Counted from the stretch's first letter, positions 221-25,940 are shown. The stretch: 32,000 nucleotides of DNA from Desulfotalea psychrophila LSv54 (GCF_000025945.1 NC_006138.1:1530001-1562000); one strand, 5' to 3'. Notes: a model not told the origin generated them from the sequence alone. Made by a program: numbers and translations.

Positions 221-1147
221 CTATATCTGCCCATGGTAAAAGAAATCATAAAATGTGGCACTTTCTTTCTGTAGTAGTCCTACTTCAGCTAGTTGGAAAC
301 GGACCTTGTCTCCGGGCTTTCTTTGGGCAAGGCGGAAGATATCGCGTTGGCAGATAACGCCAACGATGGGATAGCCTCCCGTGCACTGGCGGTCGTTGAG
401 GAGGATTATAGGCTCACCCGCTGACGGGATCTGGATGGCCCCGCAGGGGACACCTGTTGAGAGGATATTGTTGCCCGTTCGTAGGAGAGGAGTGCCATTG
501 AGGCGATAGCCCATTCGGTCGGCGTCGTTGCTCACCGTATAGACCTTACTGAGAAATTCCTTAATGCTCTCTGGCTGAAACTCTGCAAAATGATAGCCGG
601 CGGTAAAGCGGAGGATGAGTTCCTCTTGGTAGTCCGGTATCCATTTTTTCGGTAGACGATAAGGGGCTGCCGTAGCCGGGCTCTTGTAGTGTAACCTATC
701 ACCTGCCGCTAGCTTTTTGCCATCATTGCCGCCGGTAACTTCTCGGATTACCGTGGAGGAACTGCCAAAAAATTGTGAGGTGGAAAAGCCGCCCGCCAGG
801 CTGAGATAGGATCGCAGTCCCGTTTTCATGATGCCAAAGCTTAACTTGTCGCCCGGGTAAACGGCTATGGAGGACCAGTTGGGGATATTGACTCCATTGA
901 TCTTTGCCTCCATCTCTGCCCCGGTTATGGCGATGCGGCTAGGCGCATCGAAGAGAAAGGAGCTGTTGCCGACCAGTATCTCCAGGGCTGGTGTTTCAGG
1001 ATGATTTTGTAGAATTCTGTTTGCCCAAAAGAAGGCATGCTTGTCCAGGGCTCCGGCTTCAGCCAGCCCCAGTTGTTGGCATTTTTCTCGGCCCTGATCC
1101 TGGATTGTTGTCAAGAATCCGCCCGTAAGTACCTGCATGGTGGCCAT
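221..1147 (-). CDS. pxpC: 5-oxoprolinase subunit C (PxpC; KipA / historical 'allophanate hydrolase subunit 2' family)
   Basis: 308-aa ORF with family-typical sequence (MQVLTGGFLTTIQDQGR..., ...GAIQIPSAGEPIILLNDRQCTGGYPIVGVI...). Its ATG overlaps the pxpB stop by 1 nt (TAATG, 1145-1149). It is the third gene of a pxpA-pxpB-pxpC string. Confidence 0.85.
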   Translation of the reverse strand: MATMQVLTGGFLTTIQDQGREKCQQLGLAEAGALDKHAFFWANRILQNHPETPALEILVGNSSFLFDAPSRIAITGAEMEAKINGVNIPNWSSIAVYPGDKLSFGIMKTGLRSYLSLAGGFSTSQFFGSSSTVIREVTGGNDGKKLAAGDRLHYKSPATAAPYRLPKKWIPDYQEELILRFTAGYHFAEFQPESIKEFLSKVYTVSNDADRMGYRLNGTPLLRTGNNILSTGVPCGAIQIPSAGEPIILLNDRQCTGGYPIVGVICQRDIFRLAQRKPGDKVRFQLAEVGLLQKESATFYDFFYHGQI

Positions 1148-1839
1148 TATAATATCCCCCCAAGTGCTAAAAACTCATCCCGGTTGATGGATTTGAACTG
1201 AACCATATCACCCTGTTGAAAAAGAGAGGGTTGTTCTCTTTTAGAATCAAAGACCGTAGTCGGTGTCCGGCCGATAATATGCCAGCCACCGGGCATCTCG
1301 ATGGGGTAGATTGCCGTTTGAAAATCGGCAATGGCGACGCTTCCCACGGGGATTTTTAGCTGTGGGGTCTTCCGGCGTGGCAGCTGCATCTGCTTTGGCA
1401 GATCTCCCATATAGGCGTATCCTGGACAAAATCCAAGCATATAGACAAAGAATGGAGAGGCCGTATGTCCTGCAATCAACTCCTCCAGGCTCAGGTTCAT
1501 ATCGGCTGTTATTTCATCTAGATATTCTGCTACTTCATGGTTGTAGTAGGTGGGGATCTCAATGATCTTGCCACGTCCGCTCTCTACTTTGGCCTCCATG
1601 GCAAGACTGGCCTCTACCTGTGCCAGAAAATCCCCATGCAAGTAGGGTTTGAAGGTGATAAGCAGGGCATTGTAGGAGGCAATGATATTGAGAATGCTCT
1701 CTCCCAACTCTGCTTCGATGACCCTTGCGCAGCTGGCAATATAGAGCGAAAGCGTCGTGCTGGCGGTCTCTCCGTATTTAATAAGCAGGGAGTTTTCCGA
1801 GACTGGGCTGATGGTATAGGGGATAGTTTTTTTATGCAT
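1147..1839 (-). CDS. pxpB: 5-oxoprolinase subunit B (PxpB; KipI / 'allophanate hydrolase subunit 1' family)
   Basis: 230-aa ORF with KipI-type sequence (...MLGFCPGYAYMGDLP..., ...IPVGSVAIADFQTAIYPIEMPGGWHIIGRTP...). Its start overlaps the pxpA stop by 8 nt (ATGCATAA, 1832-1839), which suggests translational coupling. Confidence 0.85.
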   Translation of the reverse strand: MHKKTIPYTISPVSENSLLIKYGETASTTLSLYIASCARVIEAELGESILNIIASYNALLITFKPYLHGDFLAQVEASLAMEAKVESGRGKIIEIPTYYNHEVAEYLDEITADMNLSLEELIAGHTASPFFVYMLGFCPGYAYMGDLPKQMQLPRRKTPQLKIPVGSVAIADFQTAIYPIEMPGGWHIIGRTPTTVFDSKREQPSLFQQGDMVQFKSINRDEFLALGGIL

Positions 1840-2557
1840 GCTCTTCTATGATTGTTTTAAACTCTTTAATGAGATGAGCCCCGTCGCCATCCCCGTGAAC
1901 GCAGAGGGAATCAATGGGAAAGTTGAGCGTATTACCAGCCCTTGAGAGAATGGCCCTGCCCAGGCAACAGTTCTTTACTCGCTGAATCATTTCAGCCTTT
2001 GCAATAAGAGCGCCCTCCTTATTTCGATTGATGAGCGAACCATCGTCTTCATAACCTCGGTCGACAAAGCCCTCCAGGATGATTTCGGTGCCGTATTCGG
2101 TGGCGAGTTTTTTGTGCTCCTGCCAGCGAGCGGTTGCTAAGATCATGAGCTTGCACTCCATCTTGGCTGCAACTTGAAGGGCGGCCCGGAGGATGGCCTC
2201 GTCTCGCATCATGGTGTTGTAGAGGGCGCCATGGGGCTTGATATAGTCGAGGCTAACCTCATGTATTCGACAAAAAGCAGAGAGGGCACCCACCTGATAG
2301 AGCATTGTGTTTTTACATTCACTCGGGGAAAGTGCCATGTTTCTTCGGCCAAAACCCTGCAGGTCGGGATAACCGGGATGGGCACCAATGCGTACGCCAT
2401 ATGTCTTGGCCAGAGTAACGGTGTGATTCATTACCTCGGGGTCTGAGGCGTGCATTCCGCAGGCAATATTGGCCATATCAACATGGGGCATAATTTTATC
2501 ATCCTGGCTAATGCTGTAGTTGCCAAAACTTTCTCCCATATCGCAGTTGAGTAACAT
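1832..2557 (-). CDS. pxpA: 5-oxoprolinase subunit A (PxpA; LamB/YcsF family)
   Basis: 241-aa ORF with LamB/YcsF hallmarks: MLLNCDMGESFG, ANIACGMHASDP, GAHPGYPDLQGFGRR, IKPHGALYN. Confidence 0.9.
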   Translation of the reverse strand: MLLNCDMGESFGNYSISQDDKIMPHVDMANIACGMHASDPEVMNHTVTLAKTYGVRIGAHPGYPDLQGFGRRNMALSPSECKNTMLYQVGALSAFCRIHEVSLDYIKPHGALYNTMMRDEAILRAALQVAAKMECKLMILATARWQEHKKLATEYGTEIILEGFVDRGYEDDGSLINRNKEGALIAKAEMIQRVKNCCLGRAILSRAGNTLNFPIDSLCVHGDGDGAHLIKEFKTIIEEHA

Positions 2558-2672
2558 GAACTATTTCCTATATTATTTGAGGGTTGTAAAAGAGGTATTG
2601 CTAGCACCATGAGCAGGGCCTTTGAGAACCAGCCTGTGGCGCAATAAAATGTGGATAAATTAATCCCATTAA

Positions 2673-2708
2673 TATAACAGATAAATGGTAGAGATATAAC
2701 AGATAAAT
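2673..2708. repeat. Two copies of the 15-bp direct repeat ATATAACAGATAAAT, start-to-start spacing 21 bp, in the pxpA/ade divergent intergenic region
   Basis: Read directly: copies at 2673-2687 and 2694-2708. A third GATAAAT core lies at 2654-2660. The two-helical-turn phasing suggests a protein-binding site. The function is not established. Confidence 0.4.
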
Positions 2709-3202
2709 TGCATATAGGTGTGAGCCATTCCTGCTTTGCAGGGATTCTTTGTTGGGTATGAATAGATAACTATGTCTATACTTTGGGGAAAAATTATTCA
2801 ATACCGTGACAGGAGCAGTGGGGCCCTGATGATTTATTTTAGTTAAAAGAGTTTGATTATTTCTTTGAAATTTTAGAATAGATAAGCAGAGAGAGCTTCT
2901 CTCTCAATTTTACTAATAGCCCGGAAAACTAAAATTTTCCATTCTGAAAAAAAGCTATTTTTTATAGATATTTCAATTTGATAATGCGTAACCCTGGCAA
3001 ATAAAAAAGTTAGTAAAGCACCACGCTGTGCTATTGATATTGAAAAAAACTTCAGATCGTTTATTATAGTGTCCTTCAAAGCGGGCGCTAAGTTAAGTGC
3101 CCGTAATCTCATTATAAATTCGTCGAGATATGTGCTGCAGGACGGGAAACCTGATTTGTCAGTAATGACCTGCCTATCTCATAACTATTTATAGGAGGTT
3201 TT

Positions 3203-4987
3203 ATGCAAGTAAGTAAGGATGCGCTGAAACAACTCATTCGGGCTGGAAGAGGAGTTATTCCGGCCAGCAAGGTTCTCGAAGGTGGTTATTTAGTCAATGT
3301 CATGTCTAACGAGGTCTATCTTGCGGATGTCGCGATCTACGAAGAGAGAATCGTCGCCATCGGCAAGGTCGAAGAGTATAAAGGGCCAGAAACAGAGGTT
3401 ATTGATGTAACCGGCCTCTATCTGCTACCTGGACTAATCGATGGCCATCTCCACAGCGAGTGCAGTAAGCTCAGCATCACCAGTTTTGCCAAAGCAGTTG
3501 TCCCCTGCGGAACCACAAGTATTGTCTCCGGCCTCGATGAGTATATCTCGGTTTCCGGACTTGAAGGTCTGCAAGAAGTTTTCAAGGAAGTCAAAAAAAG
3601 CCCGCTTAAAGTTTTCTGGGGCGCCCCCTACAAAACCCCATACACCTTTCCAAAATCCACAGTAGCCTTTAATTTCACTGAAGAAGTTCACCAAGAAGTT
3701 CAGCAATGGCCAGAGTGTTTTGGCGTTTGGGAGACTGTTCGCGAAGCCGTTCAAGAAGAGGATGAAGATACTCTTGGAGCGCTTGCTACAGCCCAGAACA
3801 ATCGCTTGCCCATCTTTGGTTGCGCTCCCATGGCCCGGGGCAAAGAGCTTAACGGCTATCTCTGTGCCGGGGTTCGTCTTGACCACGAGAGTTATGACCA
3901 TGAAGAGGTTGTGGAGAAGATGCGTAACGGCATGCATATGCTCATTCGTGAATCTTCTGTTACCCATTTCCTCGAGGAAAATATCCGAGCTGTAACCGAG
4001 GTTAACCCCTATCTTGCCCGGCGAGTAAGTTTTTGTACCGATGATGTGACCGCCACCGATATCTTGGAAAAAGGGCATATGGATAATGTGGTACGTCAGG
4101 CGATTAAAGCAGGTGTTGAGCCAATAACCGCAATTCAGATGGCCACCATCAACAGTGCTGAGGCCTACCGTATTGATCACCTTGTCGGTTCCATTACCCC
4201 TGGTAAAATTGCTGATATTGTTATGGTTGATAGCCTTGAGGGTTTTCAGGTACAGGCGGTACTCACCGATGGCAAGCTGGTGGCACGGGATAAAAAGATG
4301 AGCTATGAGCTCAAGGCCCCGGCCCGAAGCAGCGTCCTCAGTTGCGCGCTTAAGTGCGCTACGACCACCCCAGAAGATTTTCAGTACCGGGTCGAGATCG
4401 AGCAGGGAACCGCTGAGGTGCTCTCGATGAATGTTAAGGGACCATTTGTTCGTAAAAGAAGGGATGTTACCTTGCAGGTTGCGAACCATATTGTTCAAGC
4501 CGATACCGAAAACGATGTGTTGATGGTTTCAGTGCTTGAGCGATTTGGCCGCAACGGCAATAAATCTCTCGCATTTTGTTCAGGATGGAAGTTGAAAAAA
4601 GGAGCCATGGCCTCCTCTGCTGCCCCCGATGATAACAATATTATTGTTATGGGTGCGGATGCCAGTGATATGTCGATTGCGGTTAATCACCTCATTGAAA
4701 ATGGTGGTGGCCAAGTTATTGTGGCAGATGGCGAGATACTCGAATTCCTCGCATTGCCGGTTGGTGGTATTGTCAGCGATCTTGAGGCAGAAGAGATTGC
4801 TCGCCAAGAGTCACTACTGACCAAGGCTGCAAACAGCTTGGGCTGCGATCTTCCCGATCCCTTGATGTATATGTTCTTTTTGCCAATCACCGCTATTCCT
4901 GATTATGCAATCACCGATGTAGGGCCCGTGGACTGTATCGCCCTTACCACATTTGATCCAATTCTTGCCCTCAATCCAGGCAAATAG
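3203..4987 (+). CDS. Divergent adenine-deaminase-like amidohydrolase (paralogue 1)
   Basis: 594-aa ORF with a strong SD (AGGAGG, 3193-3198). It is collinear with the canonical adenine deaminase that follows (LPGLIDGHLHSE, LDHESY, FCTDDV, ITAIQMATINSAEAY, PGKIADIVMVD). Several conserved His positions are replaced; see findings. Confidence 0.75.
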   Translation: MQVSKDALKQLIRAGRGVIPASKVLEGGYLVNVMSNEVYLADVAIYEERIVAIGKVEEYKGPETEVIDVTGLYLLPGLIDGHLHSECSKLSITSFAKAVVPCGTTSIVSGLDEYISVSGLEGLQEVFKEVKKSPLKVFWGAPYKTPYTFPKSTVAFNFTEEVHQEVQQWPECFGVWETVREAVQEEDEDTLGALATAQNNRLPIFGCAPMARGKELNGYLCAGVRLDHESYDHEEVVEKMRNGMHMLIRESSVTHFLEENIRAVTEVNPYLARRVSFCTDDVTATDILEKGHMDNVVRQAIKAGVEPITAIQMATINSAEAYRIDHLVGSITPGKIADIVMVDSLEGFQVQAVLTDGKLVARDKKMSYELKAPARSSVLSCALKCATTTPEDFQYRVEIEQGTAEVLSMNVKGPFVRKRRDVTLQVANHIVQADTENDVLMVSVLERFGRNGNKSLAFCSGWKLKKGAMASSAAPDDNNIIVMGADASDMSIAVNHLIENGGGQVIVADGEILEFLALPVGGIVSDLEAEEIARQESLLTKAANSLGCDLPDPLMYMFFLPITAIPDYAITDVGPVDCIALTTFDPILALNPGK

Positions 4988-4995
4988 GGGCGGCG

Positions 4996-6726
4996 ATGAA
5001 CAAAGAAGCGCTTAAGCGCCTAATCGCTGTTGCTGCTGGAAGAGAAGAACCTGATCTTGTTATTAAAAATGCTAAGGTGGTCGATGTCTTTAACGCTCGG
5101 GTTATTCAGGGTGATATTGCCATCGTCGATGGACTTATTGCCGGGGTAGGCGACTATAGTTGCAAAAACGAGTTGGATGCCGAGGGCCAGTATGCCGCCC
5201 CCGGTTTTATCGATAGCCATATTCATATCGAATCCTCCTATGTTAGTCCGGAAGAGCTTGGTCGCTTGCTTGTACCCCATGGCACCACAACCATCATTGC
5301 TGATCCCCATGAGATTGCCAATGTTTGCGGCTTAAAGGGTCTTGATTATATGATTGAGGCGGCCAAGAGGACAGCTCTCGATGTGCAGATGATGTTGCCC
5401 TCATGTGTCCCCGCCACCCCTTTTGAGCATAGTGGTGCCAATATCGATGCCCGAGAGATGGAGAAGCCGATCACCTATGATGAGGTACTTGGTCTTGGTG
5501 AATTTATGGATTTTCCTGGTGTTATCAATGGGGTTGATGCCACAATTGAAAAATTGTTAGTGGCAAAACGAGCCGGTAAACCCATTGATGGGCATAGCCC
5601 CGGTGTTTCAGGAAACGCCCTTAACGCCTATGCCAGTGCCCGAATAGGTACAGACCATGAGTGCGCCACAGTTGAAGAGATGCATGAGCGAATCGCCCGG
5701 GGAATGTATGTTCTCCTGCGCCAGGGTTCGGCATGCTACAACCTACGAACACTTCTCAAAGGTGTTACCCCGGTAAATAGCCGGCGTTGTCTTTTTTGTG
5801 CCGATGATTGTCAACCCAAAACTATTCTCAGTCTTGGCCACCTTGATAATCATCTGCGCATCTGTGCCGAGGAGGGTATCGACCCGATCATGGCAATCCA
5901 GATGGCCACCATCAATGCCGCGGAGTGTTTTGGCCTTAAGGATCGCGGCGCTATTGCTCCAGGTCTTAAGGCGGATATTGTCCTGATGGATTCTCTTACC
6001 AATTGTAGGGTAGAGAAGGTGTGGATTGATGGCGTGCTTATCGCAGATTCTGGGAAGTATCTTCCTGAGATCAAGCGCCATGATATTAGCTCCACCAAGG
6101 GCAATTTCAAGGTTAAAGATTTCTCTGTCAAAAAACTCAAACTTGCTATTCAATCCCCGCAAGCTCACGTCATCAATATCTTGCCAGGCGGTGTTGTGAC
6201 CAGCAAAGAAGTTGTTGCGATCAACAGAAACAGCGACAACGAATTTGTCTATGGTCACGGGCAGGATGTGGTCAAAATTGCAGTGGTTGAGCGGCATCAA
6301 AATACGGGTAATGTCGCAGTTGCCCTGCTTCAAGGATATGGAATAAAAAGGGGGGCAATTGCCCTCTCCGTGGCTCATGACTCCCACAATATCATCGTGG
6401 TGGGGGTAGATGATACCGATATGGCCTGTGCGGTCGAGGCCTTGATTGCTCAGGATGGCGGTATTGTTTTGGTTAATGGCGAAGAGGTGGTGGAGAGCAT
6501 GCCGATGCCCATTGCTGGACTTATGAGCGATCAATGCGGGGAGTGGGTTGAGGCAAAACTCACTTCCATTCATAGCAAGGCCCATGAAGTTCTTGGGGTT
6601 AATGCCGATGTTGAACCGGTTATGACTCTCTGTTTTATGTCACTTGCTGTGATCCCGGAGATAAAATTGACTGACATGGGGCTCTTTGACGTTACCAAAT
6701 TTGACTTTATTTCACTCGAAGCATAA
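4996..6726 (+). CDS. ade: Adenine deaminase (paralogue 2, canonical motifs)
   Basis: 576-aa ORF starting 8 nt after paralogue 1. It carries the canonical Ade motifs: PGFIDSHIHIESS, VPHGTTTIIADPHEIANV, IDGHSPG, GTDHEC, FCADDC, SVAHDSHNIIVVG. Confidence 0.85.
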   Translation: MNKEALKRLIAVAAGREEPDLVIKNAKVVDVFNARVIQGDIAIVDGLIAGVGDYSCKNELDAEGQYAAPGFIDSHIHIESSYVSPEELGRLLVPHGTTTIIADPHEIANVCGLKGLDYMIEAAKRTALDVQMMLPSCVPATPFEHSGANIDAREMEKPITYDEVLGLGEFMDFPGVINGVDATIEKLLVAKRAGKPIDGHSPGVSGNALNAYASARIGTDHECATVEEMHERIARGMYVLLRQGSACYNLRTLLKGVTPVNSRRCLFCADDCQPKTILSLGHLDNHLRICAEEGIDPIMAIQMATINAAECFGLKDRGAIAPGLKADIVLMDSLTNCRVEKVWIDGVLIADSGKYLPEIKRHDISSTKGNFKVKDFSVKKLKLAIQSPQAHVINILPGGVVTSKEVVAINRNSDNEFVYGHGQDVVKIAVVERHQNTGNVAVALLQGYGIKRGAIALSVAHDSHNIIVVGVDDTDMACAVEALIAQDGGIVLVNGEEVVESMPMPIAGLMSDQCGEWVEAKLTSIHSKAHEVLGVNADVEPVMTLCFMSLAVIPEIKLTDMGLFDVTKFDFISLEA

Positions 6727-6752
6727 ATAGAAATTGTAGACTACCCGAAAAA

Positions 6753-8300
6753 ATGAAATTACCTCTTTTTTGCAAAGGCGATATAGGTGCACTTGCCTAT
6801 ATCTTGGCCAATAATATTGTTAATTATATCATCGTTATTGCTACACTTTCTGGCGTGTTGGGCTGGCCGGATGAAATTGTCTATGGCCGGGTGATTCCAG
6901 GGCTATCAATGGGGCTTATGGTAAGCGGTCTTTACTATGCCTATATTGCTCATCGCCTTGCGCTCAAGGAGGGGCATAGTGTTACCGCTCTTCCTTCAGG
7001 TGTCTCCACTCCGGCGATGTTTGTTATCCTCTTTGGGGTAATCATGCCCCTGCATTACGCCCTTGATAACCCTGAGCTTGAATGGTCCGCCGCCGTTGCC
7101 GCCTGTTTTCTTGGCGGAGTCATTGAGTTTATGGGCGGATTTATTGGTCCATGGCTTAAGGCCAAGATTCCACGGGCTGCGCTTTTAGGAACTGTTGCCG
7201 GTATTGGTTTTATCTGGATGTCCACTCAAGGGGTTTTTGATCTCTACAGTGATCCTATTGTTGGCCTGCCAATTTTAGCCGTTGCCCTTATGGGCGTTTT
7301 TGGTGGATACCTCTTTCCCAAAAGAATTCCACCCTTTGCTGTGGCCATTGTCGGCGGTATTGTTTATGCCTTCCTCCTCGGGCGTACCAGCATTGATTTT
7401 ACCGGGATTGGTTTCTATGCGCCAAATCCGGTAAATGGTTTTGAGGCGCTGGTTAGCGGCTTTGCCGTGGTTCTGCCCTATCTTTCGGTTATTATCCCCA
7501 TTGAGATCTATAACTTCATTGAGACCATGGATAATGTCGAGTCGGCTAATGCGGCGGGGGACAACTACAATGTTCGCCATGCTCAGTTTGCTGATGGTAT
7601 CGCTACCATGATCTCCGCTCTTTTTGGGGGGGTAGTGCCCAATACTGTTTGGCTTGGCCACGCTGGTCTGAAAAAGGCGGGTGCGGGTATTGGATTTTCC
7701 TGGGTTGGGGCTCTGCTACTAGGCTTTTCTGGAATATTTGGCCTCTTCACCTTTTTTAGTGCCCTGGTGCCACCGGCAGTTGCCGCTATCACCTATCTTT
7801 GGTGTGCCACCGTTATGCTTTCCCAAGCTTTTCGAGTTTGCGATCCCAGGCATTATGCGGGTATTGGTATTGCTATGGTTCCCCCCATCGCCGATTATCT
7901 CTATACTCAGATTACCGGAGCCGTGGGTATGTCTGGGGTCTGGGCTGAGACCCAAGCCTCTGGACTTACTGGATATCAGGCTGAAGTAACAAGAAATCTT
8001 TTGGATGCAGGAGTTATGTGGAACGGTGTCCCGGCGGTTAAGGCGGGTGCCATTATCATCGGAATCATCCTCGGCAGCTTTGTGGTTTTTATTATTGATA
8101 GACGACTCGACAAAGCAGGAATCGTTGCATTTGCTGCGGCTGGGCTCTCATGTTTGGGTTTTATCCATAGCGCCATGCTTGGCTTTTTCCCGCACTCACC
8201 CTTTGTTCTTGCCTACCTTATCATGGGCGCTGTCTGCCTTCTTCTCCATAGCGGGCGGGGCAGGTGGTTTGATGGTGAAAAAGATTTTGATTATGTCTAG
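6753..8300 (+). CDS. Polytopic permease, probably a distant NCS2/AzgA-type nucleobase transporter
   Basis: 515-aa highly hydrophobic ORF directly downstream of ade. The segment ...ETMDNVESANAAGDNY...FADGIATMISALFGG...WLGHAGLKKAGAGIGFSWVGALLLGF... aligns by eye with the conserved AzgA/PurP region (...ES.aG...GgRTGLt...). An ade gene next to an adenine permease is a known arrangement (E. coli ade-adeQ). The family call is tentative. Confidence 0.55.
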   Translation: MKLPLFCKGDIGALAYILANNIVNYIIVIATLSGVLGWPDEIVYGRVIPGLSMGLMVSGLYYAYIAHRLALKEGHSVTALPSGVSTPAMFVILFGVIMPLHYALDNPELEWSAAVAACFLGGVIEFMGGFIGPWLKAKIPRAALLGTVAGIGFIWMSTQGVFDLYSDPIVGLPILAVALMGVFGGYLFPKRIPPFAVAIVGGIVYAFLLGRTSIDFTGIGFYAPNPVNGFEALVSGFAVVLPYLSVIIPIEIYNFIETMDNVESANAAGDNYNVRHAQFADGIATMISALFGGVVPNTVWLGHAGLKKAGAGIGFSWVGALLLGFSGIFGLFTFFSALVPPAVAAITYLWCATVMLSQAFRVCDPRHYAGIGIAMVPPIADYLYTQITGAVGMSGVWAETQASGLTGYQAEVTRNLLDAGVMWNGVPAVKAGAIIIGIILGSFVVFIIDRRLDKAGIVAFAAAGLSCLGFIHSAMLGFFPHSPFVLAYLIMGAVCLLLHSGRGRWFDGEKDFDYV

Positions 8301-8310
8301 CCAGAGTTAC

Positions 8311-8373
8311 GCTTAGTCCAACAAATAAAGCCCCATAATAGCAACTATTATGGGGCTTTTTGTTGGACTAAGC
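8311..8373 (+). terminator. Long hairpin / rho-independent terminator after the ade-ade-permease operon
   Basis: GCTTAGTCCAACAAATAAAGCCCCATAATA-gcaac-TATTATGGGGCTTTTTGTTGGACTAAGC. The inner stem AGCCCCATAATA/TATTATGGGGCT is followed by TTTTGTT. The outer arms extend pairing to about 28 bp with a 2-nt bulge. It starts 11 nt after the stop codon. Confidence 0.7.
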
Positions 8374-16575: not shown

Positions 16576-17775
16576 TTATTTTTTTTGTAAATAGATTATT
16601 GGAATTGCGGCATACATTTGGGTTGCCTTAAGAACCTGCTCTTTTGCTACATATTCGTTGGGCACATGGCAGGCATCCAGAGTGCCAGGACCATAACCAA
16701 TAACGGGTATTTGATGTTTGCCCATGATACCAACGCCGTTAGTTGAAAATGGCCATGTAGTCAGGGTTCCTTCTTTCGCGAAGAGTTCTCGGTAGGCCAT
16801 CAGTGCAGATTTGGTTATCCTGTGTTCTTTTTCGAGTTTCCAGGCGGGGAAGATGCACTCTTTCTGGCATGGTTTTCCCGTATAAGAAGGTTCTGAAAAG
16901 GTGAAAAACTCAACTCGCGCTTCGGCCTCTTGTACTGCCGGGAGTTGTTTTACCTGATCGAGAGCGTATTTTGGTGATTCTCCCCAGGTAAGTCTGCGGT
17001 CAATTGATATTTCGCAATAATCGGCAACGGAGCAGCGGGATGGCGCATGGGCAGAAATTTCTGAAACAACAAGGGTGCCTTTACCGAGTTCTGGGTCTTC
17101 TATTTCTAGATTGTCGTTTAACTGTTCAAGTTCAGTTATGATGCGTGCCATTTTGTAGATAGCATTCTTACCCTTGTGTGGGGTAGATGCATGGGCACTG
17201 AGACCGGATACAGAGATCTTAAATTCCATCCGCCCTTTTTGAGCCAGAGAAATTTCATCATTACTTGGTTCGGCAAGGATAACAAAGTCTGGTTGCAATC
17301 CTTTTTTTTCGATTAAAAACTCCCAGGCAAGGCCTTCACATGGCTCTTCCTGGACAGTAGTACAAACCATATAGGTAAAATCCTCTAGCAGATCTAAGTC
17401 CTTGAGGATTTTCCCGGCATAGAGCATCGAGGCGATGGATGCCTTCATATCGGCGGCGCCACGGCCATAAATGTTCTTTTCATCCTGAGCGCCGGAGGTG
17501 GGGGATTGATGCCACTGCTTTTCGTCTCCATATCCCACAACATCCATATGGGCATCGACGCAGATGAGTTTGGGGCCATGTCCTACCGAACCACAAACAT
17601 TGCCCATTTCGTCGATTTCAACCTTGTCGAAATCAAGGGCCCTCATCTTTTCGGCAACAAGCTGTGCGACCCGGCCTTCATCTCCAGAAAAGCTTTCTGT
17701 CTGGATAAGGGTACTTGCGAAATCGTAGATATTCTGTGCGTAGAATTTGCTGCGATCCTTAATATTATTAAACAT
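16576..17775 (-). CDS. ygeY: YgeY-family M20 metallohydrolase ('selenium-metabolism-linked' hydrolase family)
   Basis: 399-aa ORF collinear with E. coli YgeY as I recall it: DKVEIDEMGNV, GHGPKL..VDAHMDVVG, YGRGAADMK, TVQEEPCEGLAW, SIDRRLTWGE, FSTNGVGIMGKHQIPVIGYGPG. Confidence 0.8.
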   Translation of the reverse strand: MFNNIKDRSKFYAQNIYDFASTLIQTESFSGDEGRVAQLVAEKMRALDFDKVEIDEMGNVCGSVGHGPKLICVDAHMDVVGYGDEKQWHQSPTSGAQDEKNIYGRGAADMKASIASMLYAGKILKDLDLLEDFTYMVCTTVQEEPCEGLAWEFLIEKKGLQPDFVILAEPSNDEISLAQKGRMEFKISVSGLSAHASTPHKGKNAIYKMARIITELEQLNDNLEIEDPELGKGTLVVSEISAHAPSRCSVADYCEISIDRRLTWGESPKYALDQVKQLPAVQEAEARVEFFTFSEPSYTGKPCQKECIFPAWKLEKEHRITKSALMAYRELFAKEGTLTTWPFSTNGVGIMGKHQIPVIGYGPGTLDACHVPNEYVAKEQVLKATQMYAAIPIIYLQKK

Positions 17776-17794
17776 AGTTACCTGGTTAGTGATG

Positions 17795-17824
17795 AGTGCG
17801 TGTATGAGAGTTCATACACGCACT
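17795..17824 (-). other. Perfect 13-bp intercistronic stem-loop between BCCT and ygeY
   Basis: AGTGCGTGTATGA-gagt-TCATACACGCACT, read directly. It occupies most of the 55-nt gap and has no following U-tract on the mRNA strand. Confidence 0.6.
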
Positions 17825-17830
17825 ACGATG

Positions 17831-19363
17831 CTATTTAAATTCTTCTCTGAACTGTTTGAATGTACTGATTATACATAAGAACAGAACAAACATAAGGGGC
17901 AGAGCAAAAATCAGGCTTATACTTTGTAGTAAATCAATGCCGTTTTTTACCCCTAACATAAGAGTCAATGCCATAGCAGCTTGGGCAATTGTCCAAATTA
18001 TTTTCATTCTATTGCTAGGGTTTGGGTCACCATCAGAACTCATACTACTCAGTGTATATGTTGAGCTGTTAATTGAAGTGATAAAACAGGTAAAAAGAGC
18101 CAGTACAACTCCAACGGAAATTACTTTACCGAAAGGTAAGCTTTCGAGAACGATAAAGGTTGCTGCTTTAGAAGAAGCAGCTGCAGCTTTTATCACCTCA
18201 GGCGACGATTCGAGGCCGATGGTTCCAAAGAATGCTACCCAGATGAAAATTCCAAGACATGGCAAGATCATAGAACCAAGGATGAATTCGCGAACAGTTC
18301 TACCCTTTGAAACCCGAGCGATGAATGGTCCAACAAAAGGAGCCCAGGCGATAGCCCATGCATAGTAGTAAATAGGCCATCCTGTTATCCATGAAGTCTC
18401 TTTATCAGCGGCAAATGTTGGCAGCATCAAGGCATCTGAAAAGAAGCTGTTCATGTAGTTGCCAATTGTATCGAAGTAGACGTTAAACATTTTGGTGGTA
18501 GGACCGACTAATCCCACCAATATGAGTATGCCAACGAGCAGATACACATTGTAGTCAGAGAGTACTTTGATACCTTTCTCTAGTCCTGCTGTTGTACAAA
18601 ATATTGTAATTATTGCTATTGTTGCGACTACTACAATTTTCACCAGATCGGAATCTGGTGTGCCGAAAAGGTATTTAAAACTAACACTTAACGAGAGACC
18701 TGTTTGGCCGAGTGATGTTGAAATCCCTGCGATTGCACCGAAGATACAGATAAGGTTGATAGCTTTACCTAAGGGGCCATTTGCCTTATCACGTCCCCAG
18801 GGAATCAAGATGTTACTGATGAGATTGGTTTCACCCTTACGGTACATCATATAGCCGAGGATCAGTCCTACTACAGAAAAAGCAGCCCAGGCTTGTATGC
18901 CTTGGTGGATAAAGCTTTGCTTCATTGCAAATTCAGCAGCTTCTGGTGAAAGTGGTGCGAGCCCTGTTGTCGCTAAGGGGTGTATATAGTGATATACTGG
19001 CTCAGCAACACCCCAATAGAGCATTACTGTTCCCATTCCCGCTGAAAAAAGCATACCCATCCAGGAAAATGTCGAAAAATCAGGGGTGGCATCATCTGGC
19101 CCAAGCTTAATATTTCCGTATTTGCTAAATGCGAAGAAAAACATCACCATCACATAAATAAATGAGCCTGCCATATATACCCAACCAAATCTATCAGTTA
19201 GGTATTTCATTGTTGTTATTCCTGCTTTGTAAAGCAAATCGGGGAAGAGCGCTCCACAAAGAACAACAAGAACAATGAAAGACATTGTGCTAGCGAAAAG
19301 CAATTTGCCCTGCTTGAGTTCGGGGCCTGCATGAGCTTTTTGTTGTATATCTTTAGACATCAA
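17831..19363 (-). CDS. BCCT-family transporter (betaine/carnitine/choline type), copy 1
   Basis: 510-aa polytopic ORF with BCCT hallmarks (FSWMGMLFSAGMGTVMLYWGVAEPVYHY; WPIYYYAWAIAWAPFVGPFIARVSKGRTVREF). The track start is a TTG at 19363. An ATG lies one codon later (19360), with a GAGAGG SD upstream. Confidence 0.9.
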   Translation of the reverse strand: MMSKDIQQKAHAGPELKQGKLLFASTMSFIVLVVLCGALFPDLLYKAGITTMKYLTDRFGWVYMAGSFIYVMVMFFFAFSKYGNIKLGPDDATPDFSTFSWMGMLFSAGMGTVMLYWGVAEPVYHYIHPLATTGLAPLSPEAAEFAMKQSFIHQGIQAWAAFSVVGLILGYMMYRKGETNLISNILIPWGRDKANGPLGKAINLICIFGAIAGISTSLGQTGLSLSVSFKYLFGTPDSDLVKIVVVATIAIITIFCTTAGLEKGIKVLSDYNVYLLVGILILVGLVGPTTKMFNVYFDTIGNYMNSFFSDALMLPTFAADKETSWITGWPIYYYAWAIAWAPFVGPFIARVSKGRTVREFILGSMILPCLGIFIWVAFFGTIGLESSPEVIKAAAASSKAATFIVLESLPFGKVISVGVVLALFTCFITSINSSTYTLSSMSSDGDPNPSNRMKIIWTIAQAAMALTLMLGVKNGIDLLQSISLIFALPLMFVLFLCIISTFKQFREEFK

Positions 19364-19374
19364 TCAATTCCTCT

Positions 19375-20541
19375 CTATGTGATAATGGTAATCTGCTCGC
19401 TGGCACGACGGGTAAGCCATTCTGCTCCATCTTCGGTGATAACAATGTCTTCTTCGTGGACCATATCTTTACCTTTGGCATAGGTCATTCCCGGCTCCAG
19501 GGTAATAACCATTCCGGGTACGAGTGGGGTGTTGTCAGTGGCGGTGTTAGAGGGCCACTCTGTTAGCTGCGAACCAAGTCCATGTCCGAGGCGTCCAACT
19601 TCGTTGCCAAGAGCACCACCTGCCTCCATTACTGCCCACATTGCATTGTAGATATCTGTGGTTGTGGCTCCTGGGTGTGCTGCTGCAAATCCTGCGCTGG
19701 TTGCCTCGTAAACGCATTCGTAGGCTTTTTTGGTTTCAACGCTGCATTCACCAAAGGCGAAGTTGCGATCAAAATCAGAAAAATAACCGTCATAAACGCA
19801 ACCAACATCGATGATAAGCACATCTCCTCTCTCAATATTGCGGGAGGTAGGTCCCATAATGATGCTGTCATAGCCGTCTGGACCGGAACCAGAGATGAGG
19901 TATTTGACAAATTCGGCCCCATCTTCCAACATATCGATACGCATTTGCCGGCAGATATCTCTTTCTGTTTGACCAACACGGGCATGTAGGGGAATACGAT
20001 CAAAGGCATTGTTGGTAATTACGCACGCCTTTCGAATTTTGGCGATTTCGGCAGGAGATTTAACTGAACGCAATCGATGCATTTCAAGGGCAATGTCAAC
20101 GAACTCTTTTCCCTGTAGGCGGGTAGAGAGATTGAGATAGTCGGTGGTTGGCATACGTAAATATGATTGAAGACCGAGTGTTGCACCAACTCTACCGTAT
20201 TTGGTAGGAAGGGCGTTGAGAACTCCAGCGACCAGGGAGATACCGTCGTCTTCCGGGGCAGGGGATGACCAGGTTCTAATGTCATCAATCCATGTAGCCG
20301 CCATACCGCTTGCCCCAATACCCGGGATAACAGCAATAGGCTTGCCCTCTGTGGGAATTATGAGAAACCATGGGCGGGTAGGGCTTTCCCAAAATTGTGT
20401 GTAGTAACCTGTATAATATCGAATGTTTGGTTCGGTGGTGAGGAAAACTGCATCGAGTTTTTTCTCGCGCATAACTGCCTGCATCTTAGCTGTTCGTGCT
20501 TCAAATTCTGCATCGTCAAAACCGAATTCTCTTATGGTCAT
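19375..20541 (-). CDS. M24-family metallohydrolase (creatinase/prolidase fold, metal ligands intact)
   Basis: The N-terminal part is consistent with a Creatinase_N-type domain, followed by the pita-bread domain. Candidate metal ligands are present: IIDVGCVYDGYFSDFDRNF, GHGLG, ITLEPG, VHEEDIV. I place the start at ATG 20541 (MTIREF...) with SD AGAGAGG 7 nt upstream, rather than at the track start 20589, which overlaps dpaL. Confidence 0.8.
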   Translation of the reverse strand: MTIREFGFDDAEFEARTAKMQAVMREKKLDAVFLTTEPNIRYYTGYYTQFWESPTRPWFLIIPTEGKPIAVIPGIGASGMAATWIDDIRTWSSPAPEDDGISLVAGVLNALPTKYGRVGATLGLQSYLRMPTTDYLNLSTRLQGKEFVDIALEMHRLRSVKSPAEIAKIRKACVITNNAFDRIPLHARVGQTERDICRQMRIDMLEDGAEFVKYLISGSGPDGYDSIIMGPTSRNIERGDVLIIDVGCVYDGYFSDFDRNFAFGECSVETKKAYECVYEATSAGFAAAHPGATTTDIYNAMWAVMEAGGALGNEVGRLGHGLGSQLTEWPSNTATDNTPLVPGMVITLEPGMTYAKGKDMVHEEDIVITEDGAEWLTRRASEQITIIT

Positions 20542-20564
20542 AGTAAAGCCTCTCTTTGCTGTTG

Positions 20565-21776
20565 TTATAGGTTGTCGCGTCCGTGCCATAAAACATCCCT
20601 GTACAATTCAGGGGAGGTATCACCTTCGGTGCTGATGCAGAGCACCTGTGCATTCAGGTCGAGGCCAAGCTTTTCCCGGGCCTCTTTTCCCTCTTCGCTG
20701 GTCATTACCCAGTGAAGAAAGCCTGTTGTTGCGGCTCCTGATTCTCCGGAGGTCACCTGTGGATCTCCTTTTATTGGAGCTCCCAAAACTCTCATTCCCG
20801 TTGCGGCAATATCGTCGGAGCAAGACGCATAGGCGACGGGATAATCTCGAAGCATTTCCCAGCTGGTTTTGTTGGGTTCACCGCAGGCGAGTCCGGCCAT
20901 AAGGGTGAGGAGGTCACCTTCAACAGTGTGAGGTTTTCCGTCGTTTGCGCAGGCAGAAACATAAAAACAGTTCGCGGCATCGGGCTCTACGATGATGAAT
21001 TTAGGGCAATCTTTGCCGAAGGCAGACATGAAAAAACCGATCATCGCTCCTGCAAAACAGCCAACTCCAGCCTGGAGTAAAACATGGGTGGGACGTTCAA
21101 TACCCTGTGCCTGCATCTGTTCTAATGCCTCAAGGGCAAGGGTTGTGTATCCCTGCATAATTGTATTCGGAATGTCCTCGTATCCATCCCAAGCTGTATC
21201 TTGTACTGTGATCCATCCCTCCTGTTGTGCTTTGTCCCAGGCCATGCGAACACAGTCGTCGTAATTGAGTTCTGTTATGGTGCAGTCGGAGCCAAGGGCT
21301 TGGATATTGTCGCGACGGATGGGAGCAGAACCCTTTGGCATGTAGATAATGGCTTTTTTATTAAACTCTTTAGCCGCCCATGCCAGGCCTCGTCCATGAT
21401 TCCCATCTGTTGTAGATGCGAAGGTGATATCGCCAATTTTGTCCGAGGTCTCTTTAGAACTCAGGTCAGAACAGCTTACTTCGGAGATATCTTTGCCAAG
21501 CATTTCAGCGAGTATTTTTCCTACGGCGTAGGAACCGCCAAGTACCTTGAAGGCGTTGAGACCAAAGCGATAGGATTCATCTTTTATCAGGATTGATCCA
21601 AGCCCAAGGTGTTCAGCAAGTTGGTCAAGTTTAGCCAAGGGTGTTGGCTGGTAGGATGGAAAGGTTTGGTGGAAGTCTCTAACTTTCTCAGCTACTTCTT
21701 TACTGAGAAGGGAGACCTCTGTCCCTTTTAATGGAGCTATTGGATTTTCATTAAATTTAATTCTAACACTAGACAA
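20565..21776 (-). CDS. dpaL: Diaminopropionate ammonia-lyase (YgeX/DpaL type, PLP-dependent)
   Basis: 403-aa ORF collinear with E. coli YgeX as I recall it: YQPTPL, IKDESYRFGLNAFKVLGGSYA, TTDGNHGRGLAWAA, IYMPKGSA, LLQAGVG, MAGLACGEPN, ISTEGDT. It uses a TTG start, with GAGGGAG 7 nt upstream. Confidence 0.85.
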   Translation of the reverse strand: MSSVRIKFNENPIAPLKGTEVSLLSKEVAEKVRDFHQTFPSYQPTPLAKLDQLAEHLGLGSILIKDESYRFGLNAFKVLGGSYAVGKILAEMLGKDISEVSCSDLSSKETSDKIGDITFASTTDGNHGRGLAWAAKEFNKKAIIYMPKGSAPIRRDNIQALGSDCTITELNYDDCVRMAWDKAQQEGWITVQDTAWDGYEDIPNTIMQGYTTLALEALEQMQAQGIERPTHVLLQAGVGCFAGAMIGFFMSAFGKDCPKFIIVEPDAANCFYVSACANDGKPHTVEGDLLTLMAGLACGEPNKTSWEMLRDYPVAYASCSDDIAATGMRVLGAPIKGDPQVTSGESGAATTGFLHWVMTSEEGKEAREKLGLDLNAQVLCISTEGDTSPELYRDVLWHGRDNL

Positions 21777-21817
21777 AATTATATCTCCCTCTTTGAATTA
21801 TTGGTTGTCTTTGTATT

Positions 21818-21834
21818 AGCATAATGCGTGCCAA
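21818..21834 (-). promoter_or_regulatory. Sigma-54 (-24/-12) promoter for the dpaL operon
   Basis: The minus strand reads TTGGCACGCATTATGCT, against the consensus TGGCACG-N4-TTGCW. GG and GC are both present at the correct spacing, with one mismatch (ATGC for TTGC). It lies about 40 nt upstream of the dpaL start and immediately downstream of a sigma-54 activator gene. Confidence 0.65.
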
Positions 21835-21918
21835 AATCGACAATACTGACAATAGTTCGAAAAAACAGGATCTTAGCCTTTTGCCTGAGGGGGAGGTATG
21901 TTTTTATTCACTTCTCGT

Positions 21919-21947
21919 AATGAGAAAAATTCTAGAAATGAGAAAAA
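21919..21947. repeat. Two copies of the direct repeat AATGAGAAAAA (18-bp phase) between the EBP stop and the sigma-54 promoter; candidate UAS or bend
   Basis: Read directly: copies at 21919-21929 and 21937-21947, about 85-130 bp upstream of the -24 element. A second pair, GACAATA at 21839-21845 and 21848-21854, abuts the -24 element. The function is inferred only. Confidence 0.3.
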
Positions 21948-21949
21948 GA

Positions 21950-23698
21950 TTAATAGGTACTTGTTTTGCGGTATAGCGTTGCGAGGCTGATGCCAAGACT
22001 TTTAGCGGCCTGTCTTTTTCCTTCGGTGGAGTCACCGTACAGGGCAATAGCTCTTGTAATTGCTTGGAACTCTAACTCTTTGAGAGGTATTACCGGGGGG
22101 TGGTTATTTGGGCTGAGGGGTATGGTGGTGCCTAGGTTTTCGGGGTTTACTAAAAAGCCTGAATAGATGGAGGTTTCATCTATTTTTCCCTTCTTGTCTG
22201 CAATGTTAACAAGGTATTCTATGGCATTTTCAAGCTCTCTGATGTTGCCGGGCCAGAGGTATTTTTCCATACGTTGCCTAATGTTTTTAGAGAGAAAAAT
22301 CTGGTCTTTGTTAAATAAATCACAGTATTTATTTGTAAAATGTTTGATGAGTAAGGTGAGATCTTCCATTCGATTTCGAAGTGGAGGTGTTTCAATGGGA
22401 ATAACATTGAGGCGATAATAAAGGTCGTTTCTGAACTTATTTTGCAGCATCATCTCGTGGAGATTATCATTACATGCGGCGATTATACGAATGTCCACCG
22501 AGATAGGGTTTGCAGCCCCGAGTCGGGTGATGGTTCTTTCCTGCAGAACCCTGAGCAATTTTACTTGCAAATAAAGGGGCATAGAAGATATCTCATCGAG
22601 GAAAATTACGCCACCTGCCGCAAGCTCAAACTTGCCAATTTGACCTTGTTTGGATGCCCCTGTGAAGGCTCCACCAACATAACCAAAGAGCTCACTTTCA
22701 AGTAAGGTATCAGGGATGGCTCCGCAGTTAATGGCAACAAAAGGCTCCTTGTTTCTATTGCCAGAAAAATGAATAGCTCGGGCAACCAGCTCTTTTCCTG
22801 TGCCACTTTCGCCAGAGATAAGAACCGATGAGTTGGTGTCTGAGGTTGCCTGTATTTGGCTTTTTAATGTTCTAATAAGAGGAGAGTTTCCGATAATATG
22901 CTGTAGTGATGCATCTTCCGGGGAACTTGGTCCTGAGGATAAAGATATAACAGATTGGATGGTATCAAAGATAAAAACAGAGGAGAATCTGCTTGTCTTG
23001 GAATCGAGCTTAACCCTTTTTCCTGCCAGTAGCTGTTGCCTATCTCCTTGTCTTATGATGAATTCGTCAAGGTCGGAGAATGTCACGCCTGTGGCTGTCA
23101 GGGAGAAATTCTCAAAATTAGAATTAAGGGTTTTGTGCAAAATTTCTTGGGCTCTGGCGTTTTTGAAAACAACTTTTCCGTTTGTGTCACAAATCATGGT
23201 GCCACGGTTGTTTATCTCTATGACCTCTGACATTGCATCAAAAAGATCGTTAAGATTTTTTTGAGCATGTTTTTCAAGTACATGGGCTGCGATACTGCTA
23301 GTGAGTAATTGGAGGAAATTTACATAAACATCTCTTTGCGGAATAAGTTTTTTTCGAATCTCTTCAGAGAAGCAGATGAGTTCCATTGCCCCATAGGTGT
23401 TTTTTCCGTCGGAAATGGGGGCACAGATAGAGAGGAGCTCATGGCATTGTTCTTTGGTTTGGCAACCCTTGCATATGCTATTTTTCCTGGGGTTTTCAAT
23501 AAAAAGAGGTTTGGTACTTTTCAGTGTGGCTTTGAGAAGATTACCTGCTTTTTTTATGCTTTTCCCAATGTTTTTTGAGTAATCCCCAGTGCCTGCAATT
23601 CTGATGAGGTTGGTATCAACAACTTCAACTTCAAAACCAGTTACCTTGGATATTGTATCAGCGTAATATTGAATTTGTTTTTGCAGACTGAGTAACAC
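21950..23698 (-). CDS. Sigma-54-dependent transcriptional activator (YgeV-like: N-terminal sensory domain with Cys cluster, PAS-like region, AAA+ domain, Fis-type HTH)
   Basis: AAA+ motifs GESGTGKELVARAIH and GAFTGA, ESELFGY, and a C-terminal HTH (AAKSLGISLATLYRK). The N-terminus (FEVEVVDTNLIRIAGTGDY ... CKGCQTKEQC) resembles E. coli YgeV as I recall it. I prefer the GTG start at 23698 (AGGAG 5 nt upstream). The maximal ORF begins at a TTG at 23752, which has no SD. Confidence 0.88.
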   Translation of the reverse strand: MLLSLQKQIQYYADTISKVTGFEVEVVDTNLIRIAGTGDYSKNIGKSIKKAGNLLKATLKSTKPLFIENPRKNSICKGCQTKEQCHELLSICAPISDGKNTYGAMELICFSEEIRKKLIPQRDVYVNFLQLLTSSIAAHVLEKHAQKNLNDLFDAMSEVIEINNRGTMICDTNGKVVFKNARAQEILHKTLNSNFENFSLTATGVTFSDLDEFIIRQGDRQQLLAGKRVKLDSKTSRFSSVFIFDTIQSVISLSSGPSSPEDASLQHIIGNSPLIRTLKSQIQATSDTNSSVLISGESGTGKELVARAIHFSGNRNKEPFVAINCGAIPDTLLESELFGYVGGAFTGASKQGQIGKFELAAGGVIFLDEISSMPLYLQVKLLRVLQERTITRLGAANPISVDIRIIAACNDNLHEMMLQNKFRNDLYYRLNVIPIETPPLRNRMEDLTLLIKHFTNKYCDLFNKDQIFLSKNIRQRMEKYLWPGNIRELENAIEYLVNIADKKGKIDETSIYSGFLVNPENLGTTIPLSPNNHPPVIPLKELEFQAITRAIALYGDSTEGKRQAAKSLGISLATLYRKTSTY

Positions 23699-24078
23699 GA
23701 TTGCTCCTAATGATGGGGGTGCTTGGTTTACTATTTGCTTCCATAGGGGCAAGAGGATTGGGTGTATGAAAATTTACCAAATAGTTCGGCGAGGTTGTTA
23801 TGAACAAGATAAACAGATTGGCTACATATTTTTATAAATAAAATTAAGGCCAGAGAAGTCTCCCCATATGGACATAGTAATATAACCGATTGTACGTGCT
23901 TTTTGCTATCTTTTACTGTCGGAGCGGATTTGTTAGCTTGGAAATGTCCACAACACGGTATTGTCATCTGCTTTTGGGCATAGTGTTTTTATTGATGAAA
24001 TATCGTGAGCTAAAAAATGTTGGTAGGAGATAATGAAAAATAGAGGTGTTGTCTTTTTGTTGCCAGGAGTGTGCAGCA

Positions 24079-24113
24079 GGGATCCTGTTCAGCTCAGCTC
24101 AGCTCAGGATCCC
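24079..24113 (-). terminator. 9-bp stem hairpin whose loop carries an (AGCTC)x3 pentanucleotide repeat, 7 nt after the stop of the small secreted-protein gene
   Basis: GGGATCCTG-ttcagctcagctcagct-CAGGATCCC, read directly. There is no U-tract, so it may be a 3' stabiliser rather than an efficient terminator. Confidence 0.35.
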
Positions 24114-24120
24114 CGTAGAA

Positions 24121-25912: not shown

Positions 25913-25940
25913 GGTCTGTTTTCCTTGTAATGATTTGTTT

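Follow-up and report, generated by a model that had tools for sequence, protein, structure and literature searches.

The present study deals with a cassette of three genes on the plus strand of Desulfotalea psychrophila LSv54, in which two members of the adenine deaminase family (here called par1 and par2) stand in tandem and are followed by a membrane transporter. The stretch of DNA analyzed comprises 32,000 nt and is referred to as the window, and all positions are numbered from its first letter. New here is a structured leader RNA, lying outside Rfam 15, which is tied to the par1 cassette. Thousands of genes of gut, oral and sediment anaerobes are labelled plain 'adenine deaminase', and since half of the conserved pair, par1, fails the ligand and score criteria of the family, these annotations probably conceal a different activity. 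As best explanation we propose, tentatively and with somewhat less than even confidence, an RNA-controlled uptake-and-deamination module, in which par2 would handle adenine and par1 a modified purine.

The features of the cassette are the following:

3040..3067, plus strand: promoter-like site (TTGAAA-16 nt-TATTAT), situated some 35 nt before the leader RNA (consensus scan)
3106..3194, plus strand: conserved structured leader RNA, riboswitch-like candidate (covariance model, covariation, fold)
3203..4987, plus strand: par1, remodelled adenine-deaminase-family protein of 594 aa, 'Adenine deaminase 1' in UniProt (open reading frame, profiles, alignment, model)
4996..6726, plus strand: par2, putative canonical adenine deaminase of 576 aa, 'Adenine deaminase 2' (open reading frame, TIGR01178, alignment)
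6753..8300, plus strand: membrane transporter of 515 aa with predicted UraA/SLC23/SLC26 (7+7 transmembrane, inverted-repeat) fold (open reading frame, predicted structure)
8327..8359, strand not given: palindromic hairpin, 27 nt past the permease stop (terminator-like scan)

Active sites of the two paralogues

The stop codon of par1 and the ATG of par2 are separated by 8 nt, and each protein matches Amidohydro_1 (PF01979) and Adenine_deam_C (PF13382) over its full length; the two are 33% identical end to end (E = 6e-86). A first-pass annotation, made from the sequence alone, had described two full-length Ade-like genes 8 nt apart with a permease behind them, which is borne out by the open reading frames and the domain matches. 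The motif contrasts it listed were each found in the translations, namely (par1/par2) DGHLHSECS/DSHIHIESS, VPCGTT/VPHGTT, SGLDEYISV/ADPHEIANV and FGCAPMA/IDGHSPG as well as a fifth pair, SAAPDDNNIIVMG in par1 and SVAHDSHNIIVVG in par2. The motifs HxH, DHE and FC(T/A)DD, which it held to be common to both paralogues (the last as FC.DD), are indeed present in par1 and par2 alike.

The only solved relative is the adenine deaminase Atu4426, PDB 3NQB (E = 1.4e-69 for par1 and 4.2e-72 for par2, with an alignment spanning par1 residues 10-546). It was aligned with 57 par1-type and 51 par2-type sequences; its PDB chain numbering equals the numbering of the paper plus 3, an offset checked on His94, Arg260 and Asp289/290 as quoted in PMC12133300. 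The binuclear centre of the family consists of HxH and an Asp on one metal, two His on the other, a bridging Glu, and a Glu beside the second His (PMC12133300, PMC8643624). In all 57 members of the par1 clade His82/His84, the bridging Glu177, His228-Glu229, Asp280-Asp281 and the purine-binding Arg249 are kept, and in all 57 a cysteine, Cys207, occupies the position of the strand-5 His ligand (His218 of Atu4426). The ligand set of the binuclear centre (HxH, bridging Glu, strand-5 His, strand-6 His, strand-8 Asp) is thus incomplete in par1 at strand 5 only, and complete in 51/51 par2-type sequences.

Six positions separate the clades almost without exception: C87, D112, C207, P475, D477 and N478 are each found in 57/57 par1-type proteins, where at least 50 of the 51 par2-type proteins display S, H, H, H, S and H, respectively. 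Cys87 stands just past HxH. At the third metal site the motifs DPHE and SHDSH of par2-type proteins are replaced by GLDE and PDDN, such that par1 presents Asp112-Glu113 and Pro475-Asp476 where par2 has His-Glu and His-Asp. The third-metal ligands of Atu4426 are taken to be His122, Glu123, His477 and Asp478 (DPHE and SHD motifs), numbered with the above offset; in the alignment His122 corresponds to Asp112 and His477 to Pro475 of par1, the third-site role of both histidines being presumed likewise. The view of the first-pass annotation that par1 had exchanged histidines of the metal centre therefore holds for the strand-5 His (His218 to Cys207) and for these two presumed third-site histidines, and it does not extend to the histidines of HxH, which are kept. 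The His of VPHGTT, also listed there as a replaced metal residue, is according to the alignment neither conserved nor a ligand: the residue there differs between members of the par1 clade (C 37, R 9, H 6), and Atu4426 carries Arg, which is why the VPHGTT/VPCGTT difference is without meaning.

Profile scores separate the paralogues as well. With an equivalog cutoff of 472.5 bits for TIGR01178, par2 passes (620.4 bits) and par1 fails (381.6 bits); as all binuclear and third-site ligands are also present in par2, this protein can be regarded as a canonical adenine deaminase. The predicted model of par1 (AlphaFold, pTM 0.85) resembles 3NQB with a TM-score of 0.82. In this model Cys207 is the last residue of strand 5 (residues 204-207), at the C-terminal end that carries the ligands in amidohydrolases. 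Altogether, 67 positions are fixed within both clades yet different between par1 and par2, among them S85, C87, K89, L111, Y114, S116, W176, F205, T283, A284, F448, D477 and N478 beside the ligand motifs, and such an arrangement around the ligand motifs would be the pattern expected on a change of specificity. The loss of the third site is no argument for lost catalysis, because the third metal was reported as not needed for activity (PMC8643624) and YerA, a further member of the family, is also devoid of its ligands (PMC12133300). Invariant cysteines of par1 are C87, C172, C207, C278 and C459, of which C172 lies five residues ahead of the ligand Glu on strand 4; an Fe-S cluster formed by them was considered as a possibility, but par2 is likewise rich in cysteine.

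Distribution of the par1 clade and composition of the cassette

At E < 1e-20, par1 has more than 2,000 protein matches. The best 120 of these are 76-85% identical to it and belong to Desulfobacterota, Fusobacterium and a large number of Clostridia, among them the purine fermenter Gottschalkia acidurici; a genome scan yielded 55 loci and added Erysipelotrichaceae, Spirochaetota, Synergistota and Holophaga. In all, par1 is found at 69-85% identity in at least six phyla of anaerobes. Compared over the same 41 loci, mean pairwise identity amounts to 77.6% in par1, 70.6% in the permease and 69.2% in par2, and near-invariant columns number 248 in par1 versus 167 in par2. Judged by these values par1 is the most constrained gene of the cassette and not a decaying one. 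The first-pass annotation had doubted that par1 is a trivially redundant copy, which gains support from the conservation of the clade, and had named a par1 limited to this genome and in decay as the case that would speak against its view; a highly conserved gene in at least six phyla is the opposite of that.

Among representatives at 50% identity the par1 clade forms a single cluster, and canonical His at all four positions was found in 94 of about 140 full-length representatives examined. More distant relatives, at 37-45% identity, have Asp112, Trp176 and Pro475-Asp-Asp in common with par1; position 207 is Cys, His or Asp in them. For this reason third-site loss marks a wider subfamily, inside which Cys207 would be a later specialisation. 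Four loci with distant signature-bearing relatives (41-45% identical) were inspected. L060 (1-10597) harbours two genes with Asp112/Trp176/Pro475-Asp-Asp together with a canonical-type adenine deaminase, a BMP-type ABC transporter and a URO-D-family gene; in this system, 42% identical, the combination of PDDN-motif members, one canonical enzyme and a BMP-type ABC transporter thus recurs. In L059 (295-4267) the relative stands beside an OTCase-like gene and an A_deaminase gene, in L183 (1716-11359) it is accompanied by 2OG-Fe(II) oxygenases, an A_deaminase gene and an NMT1-type ABC transporter, and in L185 (5051-8794) it adjoins a B12-binding radical-SAM gene.

Gene order was assessed in 55 loci, which were counted as informative because par1 is intact and 1.1 kb or more of sequence follows it. 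In 53 of them, drawn from several phyla, the next gene after par1 is of par2 type (60-81% identical to par2 of the window), so that the par1 clade regularly stands directly in front of a canonical ade gene. In Sphaerochaeta (L037) the permease is located between par1 and par2; in G. acidurici (L001), an organism that does not use adenine, it directly follows par1, with no adjacent par2. One solitary par2-type gene (L182, 5001-6731; 69% identity) has none of par1, permease or leader motif nearby, which indicates that the canonical enzyme can do without par1. In 40 loci the permease was inherited along with par1 and par2, and in several Anaerovoracaceae and gut contigs it is replaced by a BMP-family ABC importer. 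No other neighbour family is common to more than 12 of 56 loci; accordingly, the neighbourhood offers no substrate hint beyond the cassette and the ABC importer, and par1, par2 and permease form an autonomous, horizontally moved cassette. Clostridium perfringens strain s008 (L056, 7896-8837) retains the leader motif and some 279 codons from the start of par1, after which come unrelated genes for an HTH_18 and a JetD_C-like protein; this is a cassette remnant and looks like the outcome of a deletion or rearrangement in that strain.

The constant order of the two deaminase genes, usually 8-30 nt apart, would also be accounted for if both proteins formed an obligate hetero-oligomer, e.g., a heterodimer derived from a homodimeric ancestor, in which par1 is specialised, regulatory or non-catalytic and the complex acts as (adenine) deaminase. 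The one altered catalytic ligand of par1 and the recurrent pairing of canonical and PDDN-motif proteins in the distant L060 would fit such a complex, as would the correlation of the pairwise-distance matrices of par1 and par2 (r = 0.85). However, the values for par1-permease (0.78) and par2-permease (0.74) are nearly as high, and all three are explained by joint transfer of the cassette, so that no specific signal for a par1-par2 complex is left. Furthermore, the par2-type enzyme can stand alone, par1 of G. acidurici has no adjacent par2, the permease of Sphaerochaeta separates the two genes, and the 150 best of the 7,180 family representatives, none longer than 627 aa, include no fused par1-par2 protein. 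For a purely structural pseudoenzyme it would be unusual to exceed par2 in conservation and to have the full set of proton-shuttle and substrate-binding residues, as par1 does. We regard the hetero-oligomer as the main rival of the proposed module and as rather unlikely.

Public sources label the transporter of 515 aa as AGZA-family xanthine/uracil permease, yet searches at E up to 1 gave no match to Pfam (including Xan_ur_permease) or NCBIfam. Its predicted model (mean pLDDT 70) attains moderate TM-scores of 0.45-0.57 to chains of UraA, UapA, SVCT1, BicA and SLC26, a fold class which is also found in anion transporters. The lack of profile matches and the moderate structural scores mark a divergent transporter family that is not covered by existing profiles.

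The leader RNA and its association with par1

The last ~110 nt before par1 are almost invariant in 8 Desulfobacterota loci, far beyond the level of coding DNA, and the same element was detected in Clostridia, Fusobacteria and Spirochaetes. In the window it consists of the following parts:

3116-3121, plus strand: invariant AAAUUC
3125-3130 with 3175-3180, plus strand: enclosing stem P1
3138-3141 with 3150-3153, plus strand: stem P2 with invariant loop ACGGGAAA
3158-3161 with 3166-3169, plus strand: stem P3

The P2 hairpin is invariant as CAGG-ACGGGAAA-CCUG, and AAAUUC and CAGGACGGGAAnCCU are at least 97% invariant. P1, on the other hand, covaries (GAGAU/AUCUC, AGAUAC/GUAUCU, GGAUGUA/UGCAUCC, AGUGC/GCACU and others), and the P3 hairpin is usually present, variable and covarying. 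The copy of the window scores 79.4 bits against the covariance model (E = 5e-12). The leader is represented by 77 instances, 72 of them distinct, and was located in the window (3106-3194) and among L001-L058, L064, L065, L083-L085, L100, L104, L112, L125, L130, L139 and L181. Over the 72 distinct instances 89.1% of cells are paired versus 26-44% in controls with slid partners, compensatory changes occur in 13 of the 15 leader pairs, and none of 500 shuffles reached the observed values. RNAalifold on a plain MAFFT alignment recovered P2 only, and P1 and P3 were specified by hand and then tested.

In the minimum-free-energy fold of the window leader an outer helix (3105-3119 with 3187-3200) sequesters the Shine-Dalgarno sequence GGAGG at 3194-3198, its partner strand lying just 5' of AAAUUC and extending into it. 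Two kinds of expression platform can be distinguished: in 37 instances a Shine-Dalgarno sequence and no U-tract follows the 3' arm of P1, and in 34 a U-tract stands directly after P1, either without a Shine-Dalgarno sequence nearby (13) or with one further downstream (21). Several loci carry tandem copies, two to four before one par1 (L026 7398-7991, L040 7499-7989, L044 7374-7943, L053 7852-8002, L037 7667-7989), with arrays of up to four in L026, L040 and L044; as a rule the copies further upstream terminate in a U-tract, and the one nearest to par1 abuts the Shine-Dalgarno sequence.

Of 57 loci, 51 have the leader immediately in front of par1. A metagenome scan with a 16-nt core gave 120 stretches; 80 of these were examined as loci, and 17 of the 80 were accepted by the covariance model. 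Wherever enough downstream DNA was available, the next gene was of par1 type (15/15). The solitary par2-type gene of L182 is devoid of the motif upstream. Shorter, terminator-type copies precede a BMP-family ABC importer operon in L018 (3062-3143), L021 (2974-3055) and L055 (2959-3042), where this operon replaces the permease and is situated just upstream of a par1-par2 pair with its own leader copy.

A known riboswitch or RNA family was ruled out by scans against Rfam 15: at gathering thresholds the leader had no match in the window or in 11 loci, and with E up to 10 the 281-nt region 2950-3230 gave chance-level matches only (E = 1.8-5.4, non-riboswitch families). A literature search found no paper tying a riboswitch candidate to adenine deaminase. 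Since it is absent from Rfam 15 and was found exclusively with the cassette, the leader is a strong orphan-riboswitch candidate. Its unlikeness to known adenine and guanine riboswitches would fit an uncommon purine as ligand, but could equally indicate a new class for a familiar one.

Upstream of the leader, the TTGAAA/TATTAT site at 3040-3067 occupies the same place as a box conserved in the alignment of 8 Desulfobacterota loci and may act as promoter, and the hairpin at 8327-8359 is likely to mark the end of the operon. Because sigma-54 activators adjoin some cassettes, sigma-54 sites were sought as well; a TGGCAC-N5-TTGC-like site was absent in 59 regions upstream of par1. The intergenic region of 645 nt (2558-3202) also contains small palindromes at 2727-2745 and 2888-2905, and beyond it lie divergent pxpA/B/C-like genes for 5-oxoprolinase components (LamB_YcsF, CT_C_D, CT_A_B; 221-2557, minus strand). 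Further downstream, a cluster on the minus strand (16576-27557) with two BCCT transporters, an M24 creatinase/prolidase-like protein, a PLP-dependent (PALP) enzyme, an M20 peptidase and a sigma-54 activator looks like one for the catabolism of compatible solutes or amino-acid derivatives and has no relation to the cassette.

Proposed function of the cassette and comparison with known systems

In the module that we propose, promoter, leader RNA, par1, par2 and transporter would form, in this order, a self-contained and horizontally mobile operon. par1 would be a catalytically competent enzyme of a distinct subfamily, with the hallmarks Asp112, Trp176 and Pro475-Asp-Asp-Asn and, in this clade, Cys207, and may hydrolyse a 6-substituted or otherwise modified purine which the canonical enzyme refuses; N6-methyladenine or a related N6-alkyl/amino purine is the leading guess. 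Together, par1 and par2 would funnel an imported mixture of bases into hypoxanthine and ammonia or amine. The leader would most likely sense the substrate and turn the operon on, in that ligand binding may engage the invariant AAAUUC with the invariant P2 loop and thereby free the Shine-Dalgarno sequence in the window, or break the terminator formed by P1 in other species.

We read par1 as an active enzyme of changed specificity or metal chemistry, and not as a dead partner, because its proton-shuttle and substrate-binding set is whole, purifying selection on it is very strong, the 67 fixed differences cluster around the ligand motifs, and in G. acidurici, which makes no use of adenine, it accompanies the transporter without an adjacent par2. 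A precedent within the family is given by YerA and Bh0637.

Several points weigh against this interpretation. We know of no working deaminase of the amidohydrolase superfamily with a documented strand-5 Cys ligand, and for want of such a precedent the activity of par1 could be lost as well as changed. Our literature search found no biochemical data for any par1-type protein. The hydrophobic pocket and the acidic cluster ascribed to par1 are taken from the alignment, not from coordinates, and the C-terminal domain of par1 matches Atu4426 (E = 3.8e-16) better than YerA (9JQL, E = 2.4e-10). The strict order of par1 and par2 with gaps of 8-30 nt equally fits a two-subunit enzyme. The leader RNA may bind a protein or sense adenine itself, and the proposed pseudoknot between AAAUUC and the P2 loop is composed of invariant bases only and thus beyond the reach of covariation.

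A second explanation besides the hetero-oligomer regards par1 as another true adenine deaminase, a metal-variant isozyme (e.g., with Zn or Fe over Mn, or tolerant of sulfide) that is redundant on adenine. The otherwise intact catalytic set, the restriction to strict anaerobes and the fact that known adenine deaminases are metal-sensitive and can reportedly dispense with the third metal (PMC8643624) are in line with it. Metal-backup paralogues, however, are normally regulated separately and not co-transcribed 8 nt apart, the 67 fixed clade differences, many around the pocket, reach beyond the ligand, G. acidurici possesses par1 and permease yet does not use adenine, and the cassette has its own RNA element instead of a known adenine or guanine riboswitch; we consider the isozyme improbable. 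Still a little less probable is that par1 acts before or after par2 on one imported substrate, by removing the second amino group of a diaminopurine type or, as cyclic amidohydrolase, by opening the ring of the product: the make-up of the cassette (two related hydrolases and one importer) and the pairing of distant PDDN relatives with a second deaminase (an A_deaminase-family gene in L059 and L183, adenine-deaminase-like genes in L060) would suit two such steps, but no downstream catabolic genes travel with the cassette, par1 keeps the deaminase set of purine-binding Arg, Asp-Asp and His-Glu, and the clostridial genes for opening of the xanthine ring are already assigned to a different cluster, cited in PMC12507026 as restricted to Clostridia and Bacilli.

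G. acidurici had also raised the idea that par1 is the missing clostridial xanthine amidohydrolase, which was rejected, as the gene cluster of that pathway is reported as identified and as restricted to Clostridia and Bacilli (PMC12507026).

The RNA-controlled module would have consequences beyond annotation. An orphan-riboswitch candidate with a very narrow gene set means that the ligand of the RNA would name the substrate of the enzyme, and vice versa. An invariant Cys at a ligand position of a binuclear amidohydrolase deaminase bears on metal choice, redox sensitivity and mechanism, and the horizontal spread of a compact, self-regulated unit points to a nutrient or toxin of ecological importance where oxygen is absent. 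In its most far-reaching form, in which the leader is a new riboswitch class sensing the substrate of par1 (e.g., N6-methyladenine), par1 is the first deaminase of the superfamily with a Cys/His/Glu metal site, and the cassette stands for a hitherto unrecognised RNA-controlled pathway for scavenging modified bases in gut and sediment anaerobes, the proposal is doubtful.

Among known enzymes, Atu4426 (3NQB, 3T81) and E. coli Ade (cog1001/TIGR01178) have the same two-domain architecture of barrel and Adenine_deam_C as both paralogues. par2 is like Ade in every ligand and passes the equivalog cutoff, whereas par1 lies below it and differs by Cys for the strand-5 His, Asp/Pro for the third-site His and many fixed substitutions around the pocket. 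YerA (Bsu06560) and Bh0637, of cog1001 subgroup 2, deaminate N6-methyladenine or N6-methyladenosine and not adenine, and E. coli Ade, conversely, does not accept N6-methyladenine (PMC12133300, PMC8643624). They belong to the same family as par1 and likewise miss the third site. YerA, however, keeps all four His ligands (His87, His89, His210, His231), where par1 has Cys at the His210 position; its C-terminal motif is T-TTGD and that of par1 PDDNN, overall sequence similarity is low, and neither a partner ade gene nor this RNA has been reported for it. That par1 is a YerA-type N6-methyladenine deaminase by homology was ruled out, as it is closer to Atu4426 and differs in the HDSH motif; par1 is hence no YerA orthologue, and any similar function would be convergent.

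Amidohydrolases of the D-aminoacylase type have a Cys in the binuclear metal centre, so that a Cys ligand is compatible with hydrolysis. In these enzymes the Cys comes from strand 2 and bridges two metals, whereas the Cys of par1 takes the place of the strand-5 His, a ligand of one metal; subfamily and reaction differ as well.

With purine riboswitches of the guanine/adenine class (e.g., the add leader) the RNA described here shares the nature of a short 5'-UTR (untranslated region) element, an enclosing stem with two inner hairpins and the connection with purine-related genes, but its invariant bases AAAUUC and CAGGACGGGAAACCUG are unlike the core of that class. Both Shine-Dalgarno-sequestering and terminator versions exist, as in purine riboswitches and in terminator-embedded aptamers (guanidine-IV, HMP-PP), and the terminator versions resemble guanidine-IV in particular, whose conserved structure likewise includes the terminator stem (PMC7736828).

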